A DNA stretch of 64,000 nt, from the NCBI GenBank assembly GCA_028715415.1, contig JAQURX010000001.1, forward strand, positions 154,584-218,583, given 5' to 3'. Positions 1,478-61,053 of this stretch are shown here, piece by piece (position 1 is the first letter of the stretch; the number at the start of each line of letters is the position of its first letter). The translations under genes and the position numbers were made by a program. The stretch comes from Candidatus Omnitrophota bacterium (GTDB taxonomy: Bacteria; Omnitrophota; Gorgyraeia; Gygaellales; Profunditerraquicolaceae). The notes beneath the pieces were generated by a model. The model had not been told where the DNA came from. It was given only the letters and a program-made list of their open reading frames with translations, and made no database searches.

Positions 1478-2231
1478 GACTGAAGCTTTAGTTTTAAGAA
1501 AGCGAGATTTTCGGGAAACTTCAATAATCGCTGAGTTTTTTACAAGAGATTACGGAAAGATTAACGGTATCTTAAAAGGCATCAGAAATACCCCGGGTAA
1601 ATTTGCTAGCGACATTGAGCCGTTTTCTCACAATGAAATTATTTTTTATAAAAGCAGAAGTTCGTCATTGCATTTGGTCAGCCAAGCCGATAAAAAGAAC
1701 CATTTCGCCCCGATCAGGCAGCATATTGTAAAAACCGGGATGAGTGGTTTTATGATGGAGCTAATCGGCGCCGTAATGCAGGAAGAAGATAAGAATGAGG
1801 AAGTGTTTGATTTAGGGTTAAATTGCCTTAGCGAATTAAGCTTAACGAGCAACCCGGAAAAAGTAATGACTATTTTTAAGATTAAAATGTTATCGCTATC
1901 CGGTTTTAAGCCGCATTTTGATTCCTGCGTTTCATGTTCGCAGAAAGTATCCGGCCAGGCAAAGTTTAGCCTTATGTTAGGAGGGCTTTTGTGTCCCAAG
2001 TGCAGCCATAAAGATTCCTCGTGCCGTATGATTTTCCGGGGAACGATAGCTTCTATTTTACATATTGAAAGAAATGATTTCCGGAGTAATCTTAATCTAG
2101 GATTAAACCCGCAGATAAAAAAAGAATTGGATATGATATTGAATGCATTTTTAAATTTTCATCTTGAGCGGGAATTAAAATCGCAGAAGGTTTTAAATAA
2201 ACTGGAAAACTTCTCTTTGGCTGTTAAATAG
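1464..2231 (+). CDS. recO: DNA repair protein RecO
   Basis: N-terminal OB-fold signature (EALVLRKRDFRETS...GILKG). C-terminal Cys4 zinc finger (CVSC...CPKC). Confidence 0.8.
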   Translation: MSIHKTEALVLRKRDFRETSIIAEFFTRDYGKINGILKGIRNTPGKFASDIEPFSHNEIIFYKSRSSSLHLVSQADKKNHFAPIRQHIVKTGMSGFMMELIGAVMQEEDKNEEVFDLGLNCLSELSLTSNPEKVMTIFKIKMLSLSGFKPHFDSCVSCSQKVSGQAKFSLMLGGLLCPKCSHKDSSCRMIFRGTIASILHIERNDFRSNLNLGLNPQIKKELDMILNAFLNFHLERELKSQKVLNKLENFSLAVK

Positions 2232-2248
2232 CCGGATAGGGAGGAAAT

Positions 2249-3187
2249 ATGAAGATTGTTATTGTTGGCCCCGGAGCAATGGGTTGTTTGTTCGCAGCTT
2301 TTTTAGCCCAGAAGACTAAAGAGGAAATTTGGCTGCTTGATAAGAATAAAGAGCGGGCGCAGAGGATTAATCAAAGCGGTGTAATGGTTGAAGGGCTTTC
2401 AGGGAATTGGCAAATTAAGGTAAAGGCTACTGCTGACGCCAAAGAGATTGGTAAGGCTGATTTAGTAATGATTTGTGTCAAATCATATGATACAAAAGAA
2501 GCAATCACGGAAGCCAAGACGCTTTTTACCGATAAGACCGCCGTTGTTACTTTGCAAAATGGGATAGGAAATCTTGAGATTATTGGTGAGGTTGTTGGGG
2601 ATGCGGATATGGTGATTGCCGGTACGACAAATCTAGGCTCAACCTTGATAAGCGAAGGAAAGGTCAGGTTTGCCGGTAAAGGTGAGACGGCGATTGGTCG
2701 TCTTGATGGAAAAACTCCGGTTGAGATGCGTTTAATTCGTGAGATTTTTAATAAAATTGGTTTTGAAACTAAAATCTCCCGTGATATTAAAGGGCTCTTG
2801 TGGTCTAAGTTAATTATCAATGTTGGGATTAATCCACTTACTGCTGTTACGCGCCTTAATAACGGAGGGCTTATGGAATTTGAGGGAACGCGTAAAGTTT
2901 TAAGAGAGGCTGTTACTGAAGCGGTTCGCATCGCAAAGAGAAAAAGGATAAAGTTGATTTTTGATGACCCTTTGGCAAAGGTTGAAGCGGTTTGTGAGGC
3001 AACTGCAGCTAACGTATCAAGTATGCTTCAAGATGTTCTGCGTAAAAAACGCACGGAGATAGATTTCATTAATGGAGTCATTGTAAGGTTGGGCCAGGAA
3101 TTAGGCATCTCTGTCCCGGCAAATTCAATGTTGGTTGATTTAGTTAAGACTATTGAGGCAAGTTATAATTTTGCGGTAGAAAGATAG
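2249..3187 (+). CDS. panE: 2-dehydropantoate 2-reductase (ketopantoate reductase)
   Basis: N-terminal Rossmann motif (MKIVIVGPGAMG). ApbA/PanE-like length and C-terminal domain. Confidence 0.75.
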   Translation: MKIVIVGPGAMGCLFAAFLAQKTKEEIWLLDKNKERAQRINQSGVMVEGLSGNWQIKVKATADAKEIGKADLVMICVKSYDTKEAITEAKTLFTDKTAVVTLQNGIGNLEIIGEVVGDADMVIAGTTNLGSTLISEGKVRFAGKGETAIGRLDGKTPVEMRLIREIFNKIGFETKISRDIKGLLWSKLIINVGINPLTAVTRLNNGGLMEFEGTRKVLREAVTEAVRIAKRKRIKLIFDDPLAKVEAVCEATAANVSSMLQDVLRKKRTEIDFINGVIVRLGQELGISVPANSMLVDLVKTIEASYNFAVER

Positions 3188-3246
3188 TATATCAATAGTT
3201 TAATGAATCTGCCGTCTTTTCTCGTTCAAATTAGACTTTGCTTTAT

Positions 3247-3633
3247 GGTTTTCGCTTCCGTGCACTCAAAAATTTTTGCCGTCGGCTGCGGTTTATCCCC
3301 TTCGGGGATTTCGCCAGTAGGATTGTATAGGGGCTCAACGTCGTCGCTTCGGCTTAGCGTTCTTAAAAAAAAGCCGTCCTACGCTCCTCGTAAATCCTTT
3401 CCGACATTTGCCAAAAATTTTCTAATGTGCCTCCAGCAAAAACCATAAAGCTATAACAGTTTGCATAGTAATAAGCGTTTCAGCGGATGCCTTGGCTTGA
3501 TTCTCGCAGCATGTAGTTTGTGCGAGCGGCCATGGTTCACCCGCTATAAACTCCAGTGAGAGCGAGCGCAAACTCCAAGCGAGTCCCGCCACGGTGGGGC
3601 GGGACGAGCGGTGCTGCGAGAACAAGACAAGGC
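3247..3633 (+). repeat. Intergenic repeat element copy A; conserved core blocks interrupted by two insertions, including a GC-rich ~160 bp structured segment
   Basis: Shares ordered blocks with 60791..60990: tttttgccgt, cgtcgcttcggcttagcgttct, cgctcctcgtaaat, gccaaaaatNttctaatgtgcctNcagcaaaaacNataaa, gagaaacaagacaaggca. Confidence 0.6.
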
Positions 3634-3659
3634 AGACGCGAAAGTAATAGGTAAATTAA

Positions 3660-6219: not shown

Positions 6220-7176
6220 ATGGGGCATAAGATTCAAGAGCGCAAGGCACAAGTAAAACTTGTGTTTCTCGTTTTGTTCTTACTAGTTTTAAACGGTTGT
6301 CATAATAAGCCTCTTTACAAAGATACGCAGATAATGATGGGCACCTTCGTGGAGGTAGTTTCTCCTGAAAAAGATGCCTCTAGGGTTGTATTTGCGGAAA
6401 TAAAAAGAGTTGAAGATCTATTAAGTAAATATAAACCGAATAGCGAAGTATCGATTTTAAACAGAGCCTCTGAGCTGAAAGTAAGTCCAGAGACATTTTA
6501 TATACTTAAGAAATCCAAAGAATTCTATATTTTAAGTAATGGAGCTTTTGATATCACAACTGCTCCTCTTTCTGATTTATGGGGTTTTACTCATAAGAAA
6601 TACATCCTCCCGAAGAGGTTCCGGATTACAGATACTTTAAAATTAGTCGGATCAGATAAAATTGAATTGAATGATTCTGTTAATGTGGTAAAATTTAAAC
6701 TTTCAGGGATGAAAATTGATTTAGGCGGTATTGCCAAAGGCTATGCTTTGGATTGCGCTGTTAATAAGTTAAAAGAAGCAGGAATTAATAGTTGTTTAAT
6801 TAACATCGGCGGGCAAGTTTATTGTTTAGGAAAGAGATTTGGAAAGCCTTGGCGTATTGTTGTTCGCGATGATAAGAATAGTAAATCTTCTGAAATCCTA
6901 GAAATTGAAGATAAGTCTGTTGCTACTTCGGGTGATTATGAACAATTCTTTGAAGTTGGCAAGAAGCGATATTCGCATATATTTAATCCTAAGTCAGGTT
7001 ATCCGGCTGATTTAGGGGTTATTTCAGCAACAATTATTGCTCCTTCTGGGTTAACTGCTGATGCCTTGTCAACAGCGGTATTTGTTTTAGGAAAAGATAA
7101 AGGCCAGCTGTTAGTAAAAAAGTTTCCTGGAGTTTCAGCGAGGATTACAGAGAAAAACATAAATAAAAGAGAGTGA
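6220..7176 (+). CDS. apbE: FAD:protein FMN transferase (ApbE family) lipoprotein
   Basis: Lipobox LVLNGC. ApbE signature DLGGIAKGYA. The true start is probably a few codons downstream of 6220, after a REP-like hairpin. Confidence 0.75.
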   Translation: MGHKIQERKAQVKLVFLVLFLLVLNGCHNKPLYKDTQIMMGTFVEVVSPEKDASRVVFAEIKRVEDLLSKYKPNSEVSILNRASELKVSPETFYILKKSKEFYILSNGAFDITTAPLSDLWGFTHKKYILPKRFRITDTLKLVGSDKIELNDSVNVVKFKLSGMKIDLGGIAKGYALDCAVNKLKEAGINSCLINIGGQVYCLGKRFGKPWRIVVRDDKNSKSSEILEIEDKSVATSGDYEQFFEVGKKRYSHIFNPKSGYPADLGVISATIIAPSGLTADALSTAVFVLGKDKGQLLVKKFPGVSARITEKNINKRE

Positions 7177-7185
7177 GGAATTATT

Positions 7186-8157
7186 ATGTATGAGACATTT
7201 GTGTATCATCGTCAGAATGGGCTAAAGATGGATGTTAGCCGCGAAGAAATCAAGGACGCTGTTAAAGATGAAAATAGTTTTATTTGGGTTGATATGAAGG
7301 ATATTGACGATGAGGATATTGACATACTTACTGAGACTTTTAATCTCCACCCTCTTACCATAGAAGATTTTATTATGACCAATGCAAGGCCTAAGATTGA
7401 AAACTTTAAGGATTATTTCTTTCTTATCATGTTTTCTATGGAATCGCATGATAGAGCGCGCGGAAGAATTAATACTGCTGAATTGGATTGTTGCTTAGGG
7501 AAGAATTTCCTTGTTACGGTTCATAATAATGGTATTGTCCCATTGGCTACGATTAAAGACCGATTAAGAAAAAATTCTCCAATTATAAGAAATAACGGTG
7601 ATTTTTTTCTCTATGCGATATTAGATTGTATGGTTGATAGTTATTTCCCTATTGTAAACGAGTTTGATAATATGGTTGACGAAATGAGTGATGAATTATT
7701 TAAAGACCCAACCAATGAAACGCTTAGGAAAATTTACATGCTTAAAAATGAAATTATGTATTTACGCAGGACTATCGGCCCACAGGCTGATGTAATTAAT
7801 TTAATAACCCGTAGTGAATTCCCATTTATTTCTCCGGCAAGTGCTGTTTATTATAGGAATATTTATGATAATCTTGTGCGTCTTAATGATATTGTAGGAA
7901 CTTCAAGAGATGTTGTTACAGGAGCTATGGAAGCGTATGTTTCAGTAGTGTCCAACAGGCTAAATGAAATTATGAAGACTCTGACAGTTATTGCGACAAT
8001 TGCTATGCCTCTTACCCTTGTTGCAAGCATCTATGGGATGAATTTTAAGCATATGCCGGAGCTTTCTAGTAAATATGGGTATCCTATGGTAATCGGGATT
8101 ATGGTGCTAATAGGTGGGTCAATGATATTTTATTTTAAAAAGAGAAAATGGATTTAA
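7186..8157 (+). CDS. corA: Magnesium/cobalt transporter CorA
   Basis: C-terminal two TM helices with the YGMNF signature. Confidence 0.85.
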   Translation: MYETFVYHRQNGLKMDVSREEIKDAVKDENSFIWVDMKDIDDEDIDILTETFNLHPLTIEDFIMTNARPKIENFKDYFFLIMFSMESHDRARGRINTAELDCCLGKNFLVTVHNNGIVPLATIKDRLRKNSPIIRNNGDFFLYAILDCMVDSYFPIVNEFDNMVDEMSDELFKDPTNETLRKIYMLKNEIMYLRRTIGPQADVINLITRSEFPFISPASAVYYRNIYDNLVRLNDIVGTSRDVVTGAMEAYVSVVSNRLNEIMKTLTVIATIAMPLTLVASIYGMNFKHMPELSSKYGYPMVIGIMVLIGGSMIFYFKKRKWI

Positions 8158-13920: not shown

Positions 13921-13990
13921 TTTCATGTTGCAGGTTTCAGGTTTCAAGTCTTGCCTGAAACTTGCAACTTGAAACTTGTAACCTGAAATC
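13921..13990 (+). terminator. Palindromic REP-like element downstream of ppdK, a probable terminator hairpin (no strong U-tract)
   Basis: Imperfect inverted repeat gttgcaggtttcagg ... cctgaaacttgcaac. Related in sequence to the 15531 and 17994 elements. Confidence 0.45.
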
Positions 13991-13999
13991 CGTTAAACT

Positions 14000-15379: not shown

Positions 15380-15453
15380 GCCCCTGTAGCTCATAAGGAT
15401 AGAGCAGCAGTTTCCTAAACTGCGTGCGGCAGGTTCGATTCCTGCCAGGGGCA
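15380..15453 (+). tRNA. tRNA-Arg (anticodon CCU)
   Basis: Manual cloverleaf: 7-bp acceptor GCCCCTG/CAGGGGC, D-stem GCTC/GAGC, anticodon stem GCAGT/ACTGC with loop TTCCTAA, T-arm GCAGG-TTCGATT-CCTGC, discriminator A. No encoded CCA. Confidence 0.8.
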
Positions 15454-15530
15454 CGTTTTATACAGCTGGCAGGCATTTCGCTAAACAAATATTTATGTGC
15501 TCAATTCCTGCCAGGGGCATGTATTATAAA

Positions 15531-15604
15531 GAGCACAAGACACAAGAGCACAAGTAAAACCTGCAACTTGAAGCCTGAAACTTGTGACTGGTGACTTGTG
15601 CCCC
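15531..15604 (+). repeat. REP-like palindromic element (cacaaga/cacaagt ... acttgtgac)
   Basis: Contains cacaagacacaagagcacaagtaaaacctgcaacttgaa...acttgtgac. An inverted copy lies at 17994..18053. Confidence 0.5.
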
Positions 15605-16274
15605 AATAGGATTTAACATGTATAACTTACATACACATTCATTATTAAGTGACGGAGATTTGCTTCCATCAGAAATAGCTGTTCGGTATGCTGCGTTAGG
15701 CTATAAAGCTATTGCCATTACCGACCATGTTGATTACAGTAATTTTGAATTTGTCATTAAATCAATTCTGCAGTTTACTAAACACTGGCCTAAGAAATCT
15801 CCAATTAAAGTTTTTCCCGGTGTTGAATTTACTCATTTGCCTTTAGACCAATTTAAGCCGTTAGTCCAGCTTGCAAGGAAAAAAGGAATTAAAATTATCG
15901 TTGCTCATGGTGAAACTTCGGCCGAACCCGTGATAAAGGGGACAAATATTGCTGCTTTAAAGGCTGGTATTGATATCTTAGCGCATCCGGGTTTAATTAC
16001 CAAAGATGAGGTAATGTTTGCTAGGAGTAAGAATATTTTTCTTGAGATTACTACGCGTAAGGGGCATAGCAACACTAATCAACACGTAGCTAAGCTTGCT
16101 TTAGAGTTAGGCGCAAAATTAATCCTTAATCACGATAGCCATCAGCCGCAAGATATTATCTCAATTGAGGAGACTAAGGAAGTCGGCCGTAGATTAGGGT
16201 TATCTAATACTCAAATCTCTAGTATATATAAGGATGTAGAGGGGTTTTTGAAAAAAGTTCTTGACAATAAATGA
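15591..16274 (+). CDS. PHP-domain metal-dependent phosphoesterase
   Basis: PHP histidine motifs (LHTHSLLSDG, ITDHVDY). The probable true start is the internal Met at MYNLHTHS. Confidence 0.6.
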   Translation: MTCAPIGFNMYNLHTHSLLSDGDLLPSEIAVRYAALGYKAIAITDHVDYSNFEFVIKSILQFTKHWPKKSPIKVFPGVEFTHLPLDQFKPLVQLARKKGIKIIVAHGETSAEPVIKGTNIAALKAGIDILAHPGLITKDEVMFARSKNIFLEITTRKGHSNTNQHVAKLALELGAKLILNHDSHQPQDIISIEETKEVGRRLGLSNTQISSIYKDVEGFLKKVLDNK

Positions 16275-16473
16275 GTTATGTGTTAAAAAAAATATAACTG
16301 TGGCCATACCACTGGAGATGGTTTTAATTATAGACGGAAAGGAGGTTGAAAAAAATCAAGTCTAAAGCCATAGAAAATCCAGTGATATACATATATAGTA
16401 ATTATCTAGGAATATTTTTTTAACGCCTAGTTGAATATATTTTTTCATATTTTCTTAAAGGAGGTTAAGCAAA

Positions 16474-17886
16474 ATGAGTAAACGCTTAATATTAATTCTG
16501 GCTCTCGTATTTGTGGTCGGCATTACTGCTGGCGCATATGCAGAGGTTCAGAATGTTAAAGTTAGCGGAGATATTACCGCATACGGTATTAGCCGCAACT
16601 TACAGACTAAAGGTAACAAAGATTTTCAAAATGAAAACGCAATGGCAACCATTACCCGCGTTAGAGTTGATGCTGACCTTACTGACAATGTAACTACCAC
16701 AGTAAGATTGCTCAATGAAAGATATTGGGGTAATGAAATTGATAACGTTGGTACAAACAACGCAAATACTGATGTAGCACTTGACTTAGCCTATGTAACT
16801 TTAAAGGAATTCCTTTATTCTCCTTTAACATTTACAGTAGGTCGTCAGGAATTGCATTTTGGTAATGATATGATCGTTGGCGATGTTGATACTAACAATA
16901 ATGCCTCAACTGCAAGCCCCTTTGGGCAAAACAGAAGAGATAAGGATTTAAGCGCACGTAAAGCATTTGATGCTATCCGCGCTACATTGAATTATGATCC
17001 TTTGGTTATTGATGGTATCGTAGCTCAGGTTAGAAATAATGATCTTTATACTGCTGATGATGTAATGCTTTATGGTGTCAATGCAAATTACAAAGCCGGT
17101 AACTTCAAAATGTTAAAGAACAACATTATTGAAGGTTATTGGTTCTTAAAGCAAACTGGAAGAGAGAATGGTAGATCTGTTACTGCTGCTACTACTGGTG
17201 TTTTTGGTAAAAAAGTAGAAGATACCGTGCACGTAATTGGTGCTCGTGTTTCTACTCAACCAATGGATAACATGACTTATCAGTTAGAAGGTGCATATCA
17301 GTTTGGTAGATATGTTCCTCAAGCTGCTGCTACGCCTCCTAATCATACCGTAGCACGCAAAGCATGGGCAATTGAAACTGCTTTGACCTATGATTGGAAA
17401 AAAGTAAAATACACCCCATCTACAAGCCTTTTGTATGCTTATTTCAGCGGGGATCATGAAAATAATACTTATACAACCGCCAGAGGAGCATATAGAGGTT
17501 GGGATCCAATGTACGAGAATCAGAAATACGGTGATATTGCTAATGCTCTGTTCAATCAGACAAATGCTCATATCATCGGTGGTGTTGCAACTGCCAAACC
17601 AATGGATGATATCACCTTAAAAGGTGAATATTATGCATTTATTTGGGCAAAGCCTTACCACGATGGAGCAACTATAACCGCAACAGCAAGAGATTCAGGT
17701 GCCAACCTTATAATGACTCAGAGACGTTTCGCAGGCCAGGAAATTGATTTAACCGCGACCTACGATTATACTGAAGATGTTCAGTTAGCGTTGATGGGTG
17801 GCATGTTCTTCCCTGGAGCTTCCTTTGCTAAAGGAAACGACAGCGCAGCTACTGAAGTAATCGGTTCCATGAAGGTTACATTCTAA
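16474..17886 (+). CDS. Putative outer-membrane beta-barrel protein/porin
   Basis: Signal peptide (ALVFVVGITAGAYA). Alternating beta-strand pattern. C-terminal aromatic residue (…KVTF). Strong RBS aaggagg upstream. Confidence 0.5.
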   Translation: MSKRLILILALVFVVGITAGAYAEVQNVKVSGDITAYGISRNLQTKGNKDFQNENAMATITRVRVDADLTDNVTTTVRLLNERYWGNEIDNVGTNNANTDVALDLAYVTLKEFLYSPLTFTVGRQELHFGNDMIVGDVDTNNNASTASPFGQNRRDKDLSARKAFDAIRATLNYDPLVIDGIVAQVRNNDLYTADDVMLYGVNANYKAGNFKMLKNNIIEGYWFLKQTGRENGRSVTAATTGVFGKKVEDTVHVIGARVSTQPMDNMTYQLEGAYQFGRYVPQAAATPPNHTVARKAWAIETALTYDWKKVKYTPSTSLLYAYFSGDHENNTYTTARGAYRGWDPMYENQKYGDIANALFNQTNAHIIGGVATAKPMDDITLKGEYYAFIWAKPYHDGATITATARDSGANLIMTQRRFAGQEIDLTATYDYTEDVQLALMGGMFFPGASFAKGNDSAATEVIGSMKVTF

Positions 17887-17910
17887 TAGTACTTATGTAG
17901 AAGTAACTTG

Positions 17911-17945
17911 CCCTCGGGAGAGCAATCTCCCGAGGGTTTTTTTTA
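17911..17945 (+). terminator. Rho-independent terminator
   Basis: GC hairpin ccctcgggag-agcaatc-tcccgaggg followed by T9. Confidence 0.8.
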
Positions 17946-17993
17946 AAAGATTTTTTAGGCCAAAGTCTAGTAAACCTCTTTAATAATACTATA

Positions 17994-18053
17994 GGGCACA
18001 AGCTATCAGTCACAAGTTTCAATTTTTACTTGTGTTCTTGTGTCTTGTGACTT
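17994..18053 (-). repeat. REP-like palindromic element (inverted copy of the 15531 element)
   Basis: gtcacaagt...acttgtgttcttgtgtcttgtgac. The reverse complement matches cacaagacacaagaNcacaagta at 15541. Confidence 0.5.
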
Positions 18054-54495: not shown

Positions 54496-54583
54496 CTTCG
54501 GTAATCTGCCTGTCCCGGAATTTTCCCGGGATGCACGACTTTGCGTCCCTTGATTACTCAAGGTTTGCCTTTTCGGATAAAGA
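54496..54583 (-). promoter_or_regulatory. Cyclic-di-GMP-I (GEMM) riboswitch aptamer
   Basis: Minus-strand RNA CCGAAAAGGCAAACC-UUGAGUAAUCAA-GGGACGCAAAGUC...CCCGGGAAAAUUCCGGGA-CAGGCAGAUUACCGAAG. Carries the two GEMM-I signature blocks (GGCAAACC and GGGACGCAAAG) flanking a GNRA-loop P2 hairpin, a P3 hairpin and the 3' UUACCGA.G element, as in V. cholerae Vc2. Confidence 0.8.
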
Positions 54584-60594: not shown

Positions 60595-60790
60595 CTTTTG
60601 AAGAAGAAACCTTTATTTGGGTAAGATTTATTTTATGTCGCATTCTCTTTATTCGTAAAGTATTACGACACTTCTAAACTTGAATTAATTATAGTAAAAA
60701 GAATCACAATTAGCAAGAAGTTTTATTAATAATTTAATTTATATTATATTCTATTTGTCGTTTACTAAATTAGTCTCTTGTTCTATAGTT

Positions 60791-60990
60791 TTTGCTTCAG
60801 GCACTGAATATTTTTGCCGTGCGCTGCGATTTACCACGTCGCTTCGGCTTAGCGTTCTCTTGGGAGCCGTCCTTCGCTCCTCGTAAATTCTTGCGCACTA
60901 ATGTTAATAGCTGTGCCAAAAATCTTCTAATGTGCCTTCAGCAAAAACTATAAAACAAACACAGCTTTTAAGTGAGAAACAAGACAAGGC
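60791..60990 (+). repeat. Intergenic repeat element copy B (compact copy)
   Basis: Same ordered conserved blocks as 3247..3633, without the two insertions. Confidence 0.6.
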
Positions 60991-61053
60991 ATCAAGAGAA
61001 AAATTAACATTTTCTAATTAGATGCTAATAATATCGTAACCTATTGAAATTAT

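Follow-up and report, generated by a model that had tools for sequence, protein, structure and literature searches.

A modular family of structured non-coding elements in intergenic spacers of Omnitrophota

The stretch analysed here (the window) is 64 kb of Omnitrophota DNA, and two of its intergenic regions carry copies of the same structured sequence. Copy A lies between panE and a TPR gene that is followed by polX and apbE, while copy B separates a DUF2062 gene from the promoter region of a gspA-like operon and is flanked on one side by genes for a secretin, an unnamed product, and an AAA_22 (GspA/ExeA-like) protein, and on the other by DUF2062, radical SAM, and DUF4416 genes, all of them on the minus strand. 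The structured unit that the two copies share was named E1 and is found at 3240-3451 (copy A) and 60780-60956 (copy B), both on the plus strand. An initial annotation had described it as a two-copy element of ~200 bp, built of five ordered blocks. I found that E1 belongs, as one module, to a hitherto undescribed Omnitrophota family of modular non-coding elements.

The similarity between the copies is real, with all five blocks in the order first given and on the plus strand in both. Block 2 (CGTCGCTTCGGCTTAGCGTTCT, 22 nt; 3342-3363 and 60837-60858) and block 4 (34 nt; 3410-3443 and 60915-60948) are free of mismatches between the copies, two N positions aside, and gave 0 matches in 100 dinucleotide-preserving shuffles. 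Block 3 falls within a 28-nt repeat (3372-3399 and 60865-60892) of 93% identity. Block 5 (GAGAAACAAGACAAGGCA) is exact at 60974-60991 and lacks one A in copy A (3618-3634); taken alone it barely exceeds chance, and while it is indeed common to both copies, it belongs to the 3' arm of a second module, E2, and so lies outside E1. Copies A and B are 77% identical across 169 model positions, and a pairwise alignment showed that they differ mainly by two large insertions: the extra length of copy A consists of a private, lineage-specific insertion of 43 nt at ~3297-3339 and of a separate, complete E2 at 3478-3637. The region is consequently not a single unit of ~200 bp, as had been proposed, and consists of two modules (E1 and E2) plus shared arms. 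The modules are richer in GC than the window (0.372), as the initial annotation had noted, with values of 0.467 for E1 and 0.594 for E2 in copy A and 0.441 for E1 in copy B. Folding energies were well below those of shuffled controls, with minimum free energy z-scores of -5.8 (3235-3650) and -3.8 (copy B), and three helices were seen by eye to differ between copies A and B via compensatory changes.

Copy A opens with U1-A (3200-3228, plus strand), an arm-like sequence (TTAATGAATCTGCCGTCTTTTCTCGTTCA) located by a fuzzy motif scan 5' of E1 and complementary to the 3' arms of the E2 type. E1 of copy A (cmsearch, 126.1 bits, E=8.6e-31) has the helices P1 (3240-3256/3435-3451), P1b (3260-3265/3427-3431), P2 (3267-3280/3410-3422), P3 (3281-3286/3400-3405), and P4 (3290-3296/3390-3396), and a candidate helix P6 (3346-3352/3378-3384). 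E2 then follows on the plus strand (nhmmer against the E2 profile, E=1.1e-37). Its 5' arm is TTTCAGCGGATGCCTTGGCTTGATTCTCGC, its core shows hairpins and conserved GAGCG motifs, and its 3' arm, which includes block 5, is GCGAGAACAAGACAAGGCAGACGCGAAAG. Copy B is likewise preceded by an arm-like sequence, U1-B (approximately 60750-60775, plus strand), which is degenerate (TCTATTTGTCGTTTACTAAATTAGTC) and aligns pairwise with U1-A. E1 of copy B (cmsearch, 143.1 bits, E=2.4e-35), which corresponds to inverted repeat I8, has the helices P1 (60780-60795/60941-60956), P1b (60799-60804/60932-60937), P2 (60806-60818/60915-60927), P3 (60819-60824/60893-60898), P4 (60828-60834/60883-60889), and candidate P6 (60841-60847/60871-60877), together with an optional hairpin at ~60899-60914. 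Downstream of it, at 60971-60995 on the plus strand, is a remnant of an E2-type 3' arm (GTGAGAAACAAGACAAGGCATCAAG, ~25 nt); the E2 core is absent and nhmmer reported no E2 at this position.

E1 occurs far beyond the window. A scan of genome contigs with an exact pattern returned a single contig from a metagenome-assembled genome (MAG), L001, which is labelled uncultured Planctomycetales (L-numbers denote public metagenome or MAG loci that were compared with the window). Searching metagenome contigs for a 20-mer of the E1 centre gave 32 loci; 31 of these contain the whole element, and one (L030) is a chance match. A covariance model was made with 31 copies as input and gave 36 matches in the window and L001-L033, including a second, divergent copy in L025; one further E1 was found in L043, a locus obtained for an unrelated reason. 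In all, the model found 38 copies in metagenome and MAG loci, 35 of them distinct. An unfiltered search of the 64 kb with the full model recovered exactly two copies, at 143 and 126 bits, the third-best match being the reverse strand of copy B at 19 bits. The description as a two-copy element therefore holds for the window, but outside it E1 is a widespread Omnitrophota family. The initial annotation would have been undone by poor alignment or by a lack of conservation in relatives; the copies align clearly, and relatives do carry the element. The TPR and GspA-like proteins of the window match proteins on a 219-kb 'Candidatus Omnitrophica bacterium' MAG contig at 100% identity, and a look-up of the window's PanE gave no record. 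Homologues of the TPR and GspA-like proteins are overwhelmingly from Omnitrophota, and this phylum is the source of the element family.

E1 is ~170 nt long. RNAalifold run on the raw MAFFT alignment gave only a partial fold, with P1 and P2 misaligned, and a model-guided alignment was used instead. Here, 95.5% of 1471 cells at the 46 modelled pairs were standard pairs, as against 32-49% in a control in which the partners were slid by 1-3 columns; changes on both sides were seen in 28 of the 46 pairs, and the observed values were reached by none of 500 shuffles. The covarying helices are P1, P1b, P2, and P3. P1, the outermost, is the most variable region of E1, with two-sided changes in all 15 of its pairs. 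P4 does not vary, and 31 of 33 sequences have a G.U pair in it. The candidate P6 in the centre pairs GCU-N-CGG with CCU-N-CGC and shows an A-U/U-A switch (13 and 9 sequences) as well as one G-C to A-U double change; it remains tentative because the helix contains two invariant pyrimidine mismatches. The ends of the element read TTTTAGG...CCTAAAA or variants thereof, many unpaired nucleotides and internal loops are conserved, and optional hairpins of variable length occur at two fixed positions. The alignment thus shows that E1, as a single strand, forms one long hairpin with interruptions (P1-P1b-P2-P3-P4), closing an asymmetric centre of conserved sequence. Copies from the same genome or contig (A and B of the window; a and b of L010) have a lineage-specific centre in common and differ in their stems. 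The metagenome copies were fetched with an exact 20-mer in the centre, which makes that block invariant by construction, and in both copies found by the model only (the second of L025, and L043) it varies.

Wobble pairs bear on which strand may fold. The invariant pair in P4 favours the given strand; apart from it, G.U and A.C cells are near balance in E1 (17 versus 13). E2 has 16 G.U and 6 A.C cells. The bias in E2 and the invariant G.U pair in P4 of E1 point to a folded single strand rather than to a duplex inverted repeat. Folding energy was dropped as a means of choosing the strand: the reverse complement of E1 folds more stably by ~6 kcal/mol in 30 of 32 copies, which conflicts with the G.U evidence.

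Nine full copies of E2 were found in the loci. Alignments and alifold predicted 37-40 pairs, 15-19 of them with compensatory changes, for a core set between two conserved and mutually complementary arms, TTTAGCGGGTGGCTTGGCT... and ...AGACAAGACAGGACCCGCTAAA, the arm ends being TTTAGCGGG...CCCGCTAAA. Arm-like sequences also accompany E1, upstream (U1) and downstream (D1), in about one third of its copies; U1 precedes both window copies and is also found 5' of E1 in L004, L009, L014, and L024. Sequence is conserved in the arms of E2, U1, and D1, and these same arms enclose E3 (L024, L043), E4 (L058, L027), E1, or next to nothing (for example, the mini hairpins of L042 and L043). E3, a third structured module, is found at ~660-870 of L024 (minus strand), within E2-type arms, and at 9810-9990 of L043 (plus strand), directly upstream of the TPR gene; its landmarks are CUCAAGACCGUUUCCGAACGAG...UAAGGCGCGCAGGAGC...CCGAAUGCGACGAGC...GGGAUUGAG, and it has no Rfam match. 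E4 is a fourth core between U1 and D1 arms, at 2277-2560 of L058 and ~3700-3925 of L027 (both plus strand); in L027, E1 sits between the E4 core and D1, like an optional domain or a nested insertion.

The order of the modules is fixed: in each of the 10 contigs that have both, E2 is 3' of E1 and oriented alike. The two are adjacent in five contigs (the window, L004, L014, L019, and L029), and L024 shows the adjacent layout too, but with the E3 core inside the E2-type arms. In L022, L016, L021, L015, and L043, they are split by accessory-type genes, which encode a SEC-C-motif protein, two DUF5677 proteins, or products without a family match.

Comparison with known sequences returned no relatives. 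Rfam 15 was searched on both strands. At gathering thresholds, it matched neither E1 nor E2 in the window or in 14 loci, so the Rfam scan suggested by the initial annotation assigned no family. At E<=10, the two window regions gave just chance matches of <=16 bits to eukaryotic microRNAs and long non-coding RNAs, and at E<=0.5, the one match in five module-rich loci was RsmY, whose 21.8 bits fall short of its gathering score of 57. A phage or plasmid origin was rejected: blastn found nothing in plasmids, in phages, or in 5,426 E. coli genomes, the last of which do carry the ERIC and REP repeats discussed below; the E1 20-mer was absent from IMG/VR, and a 17-mer from the E2 arm gave only chance matches within viral coding sequences. 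A tRNA or tmRNA identity was rejected, as ARAGORN reports only the tRNA-Arg at 15380. A protein-coding reading of the 81-aa open reading frame (ORF) at 3203-3448 (plus strand), which runs through U1 and E1, was rejected as well: in L024 the frame stops after 12 codons, and the substitutions in E1 are compensatory in helices. Gene callers are likely to annotate spurious proteins over these elements, and ORFs of 53-107 aa overlap E1 in L010 and L025. Full-text searching of the literature found no account of such elements in Omnitrophota. In one paper (PMC10066038), RNA motifs are named solely in the Rfam annotation step.

The 31 copies are found in short spacers between mutually co-directional genes, usually 1-50 nt from the gene ends, and many are within 1-40 nt of a coding sequence. 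Their neighbours are housekeeping genes, e.g., cysS, metG, tmk-holB, folD, asd, rpsI/rplM, and murJ. Both neighbours are sense to E1 in 14 copies, both are antisense in 8, no copy lies between divergent genes, and at least one flanking gene is antisense in 11, with an overall sense bias of ~20 to 9. One sense-oriented copy is that of L012, where 1503-2481 (minus strand) carries a group I intron (110 bits), an apparent tRNA 3' exon, E1 in the same orientation, and two tRNA genes, so that E1 is embedded in a tRNA cluster. Promoters and terminators were sought by consensus scans, whose consensus may not be that of Omnitrophota, and no convincing signal for an independent transcript was found at either window copy. 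The sole promoter-like site on the plus strand near copy B would begin transcription within P1. A promoter of the element's own (TTGCGC-N17-TCTAAT) was discarded, since the optional hairpins insert between the hexamers and the scans were negative, and so was an intrinsic terminator, for which the U-tract/A-tract polarity is wrong and none was called. Taken together, the orientations, the unrelated neighbours, and the missing promoter and terminator exclude a gene-specific cis-regulator, as the initial annotation had argued from orientation, and make a stand-alone small RNA (sRNA) gene, one of the options that it had offered, unlikely.

The spacers that hold the modules vary between relatives. 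The recO-panE-TPR-polX-apbE synteny is kept in distant Omnitrophota, while the panE-TPR spacer changes: it is 472 nt in the window, where it holds U1, E1, and E2; 0 nt in L045 and 36 nt in L047, both empty; and 215 nt in L041 and L042, with arm fragments only. In L043, it contains E1, a mini arm hairpin, two genes without a family match, and an E3 module. Multiple copies and presence or absence at an orthologous site are the hallmarks of a mobile repeat, and both are seen here. Around GspA homologues, E1 and E2 were both absent from 100 kb of sequence. Comparison of 60595-60780 with L049, L050, and L052 showed that these relatives have a small MerR-family gene upstream of, and overlapping, the gspA-like gene; the window is without that gene and has E1 in an enlarged spacer instead.

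Genes enclosed by the modules were examined as possible passengers. In L010 and L025, an inverted pair of E1 copies surrounds a single gene without a Pfam or PADLOC match, and as both tools were negative, passengers as known defence genes were rejected. The L025 passenger (6842-7627, plus strand, 261 aa) has 1785 homologues of 50-70% identity spread over many phyla, with members in Firestonebacteria, Peptococcaceae, Abyssobacteria, Brocadiales, and Bacteroidetes; given this spread, the gene is prone to horizontal transfer and has been widely transferred. A homologue of 65% identity in L058 and L059 is found in another gene context, with a U1-core-D1 unit upstream and E2 downstream, while the homologues in L055-L057 have no such modules around them.

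On this evidence, the explanation I tentatively prefer, at slightly below an even chance, is that the modules form the ends, or the frame, of small cassettes that are non-autonomous and mobile or recombining, in which selection acts on the single-strand fold and co-transcription follows passively. Propagation would run via the fold of one strand, either as single-stranded DNA during transfer or replication or through an RNA intermediate, and would not depend on a sequence-specific terminal inverted repeat (TIR). The modules are arranged as 5'-[arm-E1-arm]...[E2]-3', either adjacent or around one or two horizontally mobile accessory genes, and after insertion they would be passively co-transcribed as large intercistronic hairpins. 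Copy A would then be a composite with no passenger (U1-E1-E2) that inserted between panE and the TPR gene, and copy B an arm-E1-arm-remnant unit.

Several observations weigh against cassettes. No consistent direct repeat (target-site duplication) was found at the boundaries of E1 or of the composites, where the flanks are AT-rich and the ends uncertain, and no precise empty/filled junction emerged from the relatives available, none of them close. Transposases, integrases, HUH enzymes, and reverse transcriptases were not among the commonest Pfam families (top 25) of the 106 ORFs that lie <=3.5 kb from E1 in ~0.5 Mb of loci. In L043, the core genes TPR and polX lie between E1 and E2, and the module order thus does not always describe a cassette. 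In two organisms (L003 and L028), E1 lies antisense and immediately upstream of tmk; the genes upstream differ, E1 keeps one orientation, and its helices have diverged through compensatory changes, which looks like long-term selection rather than selfish turnover. The sharing of one centre by copies with differing stems within a genome also fits co-evolution with a trans-acting partner. Purifying selection acting on a functional molecule explains the tmk sites and the shared centres no less well than selfish spread does.

The main rival is a functional role. E1, and separately E2, may be a structured non-coding RNA (ncRNA) under selection, such as a ribonucleoprotein (RNP) scaffold, a ribozyme, or an element of mRNA processing or stability, released from or acting within operon transcripts and multiplied by duplication instead of selfish mobility. 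I regard this as possible though less than probable. It would account for the strong covariation alongside conserved unpaired nucleotides, internal loops, and optional hairpins at fixed positions, for centres that are kept while stems diverge even within one contig, and for the retention next to tmk; the sense bias and the wobble pairs of E1 and E2 agree with it, and in L012 tRNA processing could release the sense copy that sits by the group I intron. Its difficulty is with the ~30% of copies that are antisense to both flanking genes and only 8-35 nt from a start codon, which leaves no room for a promoter of their own, and with the lack of promoter or terminator signals around the window copies. 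The more stable reverse complement, the patchy presence with an empty orthologous site, and the association with accessory genes and other repeat modules also speak against it, and the invariance of the centre is in part an artefact of the exact 20-mer retrieval.

A wider version of the same idea takes E1, E2, E3, and E4 as domains of a new, Omnitrophota-specific class of large, modular, complex-folded ncRNAs whose function would lie in the RNA: one example is a ribozyme, another the RNA partner in a system of mobility or defence, RNA-guided or RNA-templated, that goes along with genes gained by horizontal transfer. This appears unlikely, though the residual chance of a new class of large functional RNA is substantial. 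Arm-bounded composites do reach ~450-600 nt, and the HEARO/omega-RNAs, bridge RNAs, and retron ncRNAs were all orphan structured motifs when first noticed.

A classical MITE (miniature inverted-repeat transposable element), i.e., a deletion derivative of a DDE-type insertion sequence (IS) that is moved in trans by a TIR-binding transposase and makes target-site duplications, is an improbable description of E1. Like MITEs such as Correia, the elements are small, non-coding, intergenic, and multicopy, with an inverted-repeat architecture overall and presence/absence polymorphism; the inverted E1 pairs of L010 and L025 flank, and probably mobilise, passenger genes, and the conserved arms of E2, U1, and D1 behave as shared TIRs around unrelated cores, as in MITE families with common terminal repeats. 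A conserved TIR is thus present in the arm frame but not in E1, whose termini are its least conserved part and covary around a conserved centre, the opposite of a repeat bound by a transposase. P2 and P3 covary as well, which would be unneeded in an element recognised as duplex, and neither a target-site duplication in the flanks, nor a parent insertion sequence, nor a transposase among the commonest families of the neighbouring ORFs was found. Of the mobile, MITE-like, or sRNA character first proposed, a mobile, MITE-like, or RNA-family reading does fit better than a regulatory one, but E1 fails the classical definition of a MITE. Lastly, a cis-regulatory leader of the downstream gene (riboswitch, attenuator, or thermometer), to which several sense copies 46-54 nt upstream of a start codon and a pyrimidine-rich centre (CGCUCCUCG) that could in principle pair with Shine-Dalgarno sequences might have pointed, is highly improbable and effectively refuted by orientation and context, given that the downstream genes are unrelated (asd, tmk, ribF, etfB, TPR, gspA-like, and no-family-match genes), that ~30% of copies are antisense to the operon, that some copies, such as window copy B, are followed by a convergent gene, and that the model-found copies have lost the CUCCUC motif (the second copy of L025 reads CGCUCGUCG and that of L043 CGCUCGGCG). 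An anti-Shine-Dalgarno or sRNA function based on CGCUCCUCG was rejected for the same change of motif, its invariance elsewhere stemming from the retrieval pattern.

By analogy, the elements are filed as structured intergenic repeats or non-autonomous elements. They are closest in behaviour to ERIC/IRU, BOX/BIME, and REPIN/PATE, with an architecture that recalls integron attC sites, yet they fail the tests that define each of these families. Enterobacterial repetitive intergenic consensus sequences or intergenic repeat units (ERIC/IRU) are imperfect palindromes of 100-200 nt that occur in many copies between genes, in or by transcription units and in either orientation; they have size variants created by insertion at fixed internal sites, and a long RNA hairpin is predicted when they are co-transcribed. 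E1 resembles them in its palindrome, its placement in spacers in both orientations, its fixed-site hairpins, and its 43-nt insertion, which makes the analogy a good one. It differs in having no sequence similarity to them, an asymmetric, conserved, multi-helix centre, covarying helices, and a fixed-order link to E2 and the arms. The BOX elements of pneumococci and the bacterial interspersed mosaic elements (BIMEs) of E. coli consist of a few modules in varied arrangements between genes, with stable RNA structures predicted. E1, E2, and the arms are also modular, intergenic, and predicted to be structured as RNA, but E1 and E2 are much larger (~170 nt each), with complex covarying folds, and come from an unrelated taxon, the Omnitrophota.

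Repetitive extragenic palindromes (REPs) arranged as REPINs with their REP-associated tyrosine transposases (RAYTs), and the palindrome-associated transposable elements (PATEs) of the IS200/IS605 group, are moved by Y1/HUH transposases. They too are non-autonomous and lack a signature of terminal repeats and target duplications, their activity rests on one-strand hairpins, so that helices can covary, and the fixed order of E1 then E2 resembles the left-end/right-end pair of a PATE, a type of element that has distinct subterminal hairpins at its two ends, inserts 3' of a fixed tetra- or pentanucleotide, and goes with a TnpA (Y1) gene in the genome. REPs themselves measure 20-40 nt, their ends are conserved and their loop varies, and the same repeats flank the RAYT gene; E1 has the opposite pattern of ends and centre and does not qualify as a REP. 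Y1_Tnp genes are present in Omnitrophota (L052-L054), between unrelated GGGACA...TGTCCC palindromes; E1 and E2 are absent there, and no linkage of E1 to any Y1 gene was found. At 8985-9760 of L052 and in the same region of L053 and L054, the Y1_Tnp gene (IS200/IS605 TnpA- or RAYT-like) is flanked by palindromes of the type GGGACACTTCTC...GAGAAGTGTCCC, and related GGGACTGTCCC pairs are found just upstream of E1 in L043 (8183-8236) and in L022. These genes and palindromes may constitute a separate REP/RAYT-like system.

With integron attC sites, the elements share a single-strand site defined by its fold, paired ends, unpaired bulges, a variable terminal structure, and a position bordering promoterless accessory genes. 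They differ in three ways: neither the ends of E1 nor those of the arms have the R''/R' core sites (RYYYAAC...GTTRRRY), the length is ~170 nt with a conserved centre, and copies stand alone or in inverted pairs within housekeeping operons instead of forming one-orientation arrays by intI.

Other features of the window were recorded in passing. The 3' end of tRNA-Arg(CCU) (15380-15454) is repeated 66 nt downstream (15435-15465 versus 15501-15531, 87% identity), which looks like an att-site duplication. Next to it, at 15534-18049, a 2.4-kb segment is enclosed by inverted repeats of 37 nt and 28 nt that are 89% complementary; these arms and 13953-13993 contain degenerate ACTTG/AACTTG runs, and the segment may be a small integrated element. 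A cyclic di-GMP-I riboswitch aptamer is located at 54497-54579 on the minus strand (66 bits against a gathering score of 35), and another such riboswitch is found at 511-647 of L013.

Omnitrophota are an uncultured phylum of ultra-small, probably host-dependent bacteria, whose non-coding repertoire is not known to have been described. The present analysis adds at least two new modules supported by covariation (E1 and E2), glimpses of two more cores, and a shared arm frame, none of which is in Rfam. Whether the modules prove to be cassette ends or functional RNAs, the covariance model helps annotators to avoid spurious ORFs such as the 81-aa frame over copy A. If they are functional RNAs, they would be candidates for large ribozymes or RNP scaffolds of a new kind. 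Should they be cassette ends, they would represent a structure-recognised single-strand mobility system distinct from integrons, REPINs, and IS200/IS605, and would reveal how Omnitrophota slots foreign genes into tight housekeeping operons.

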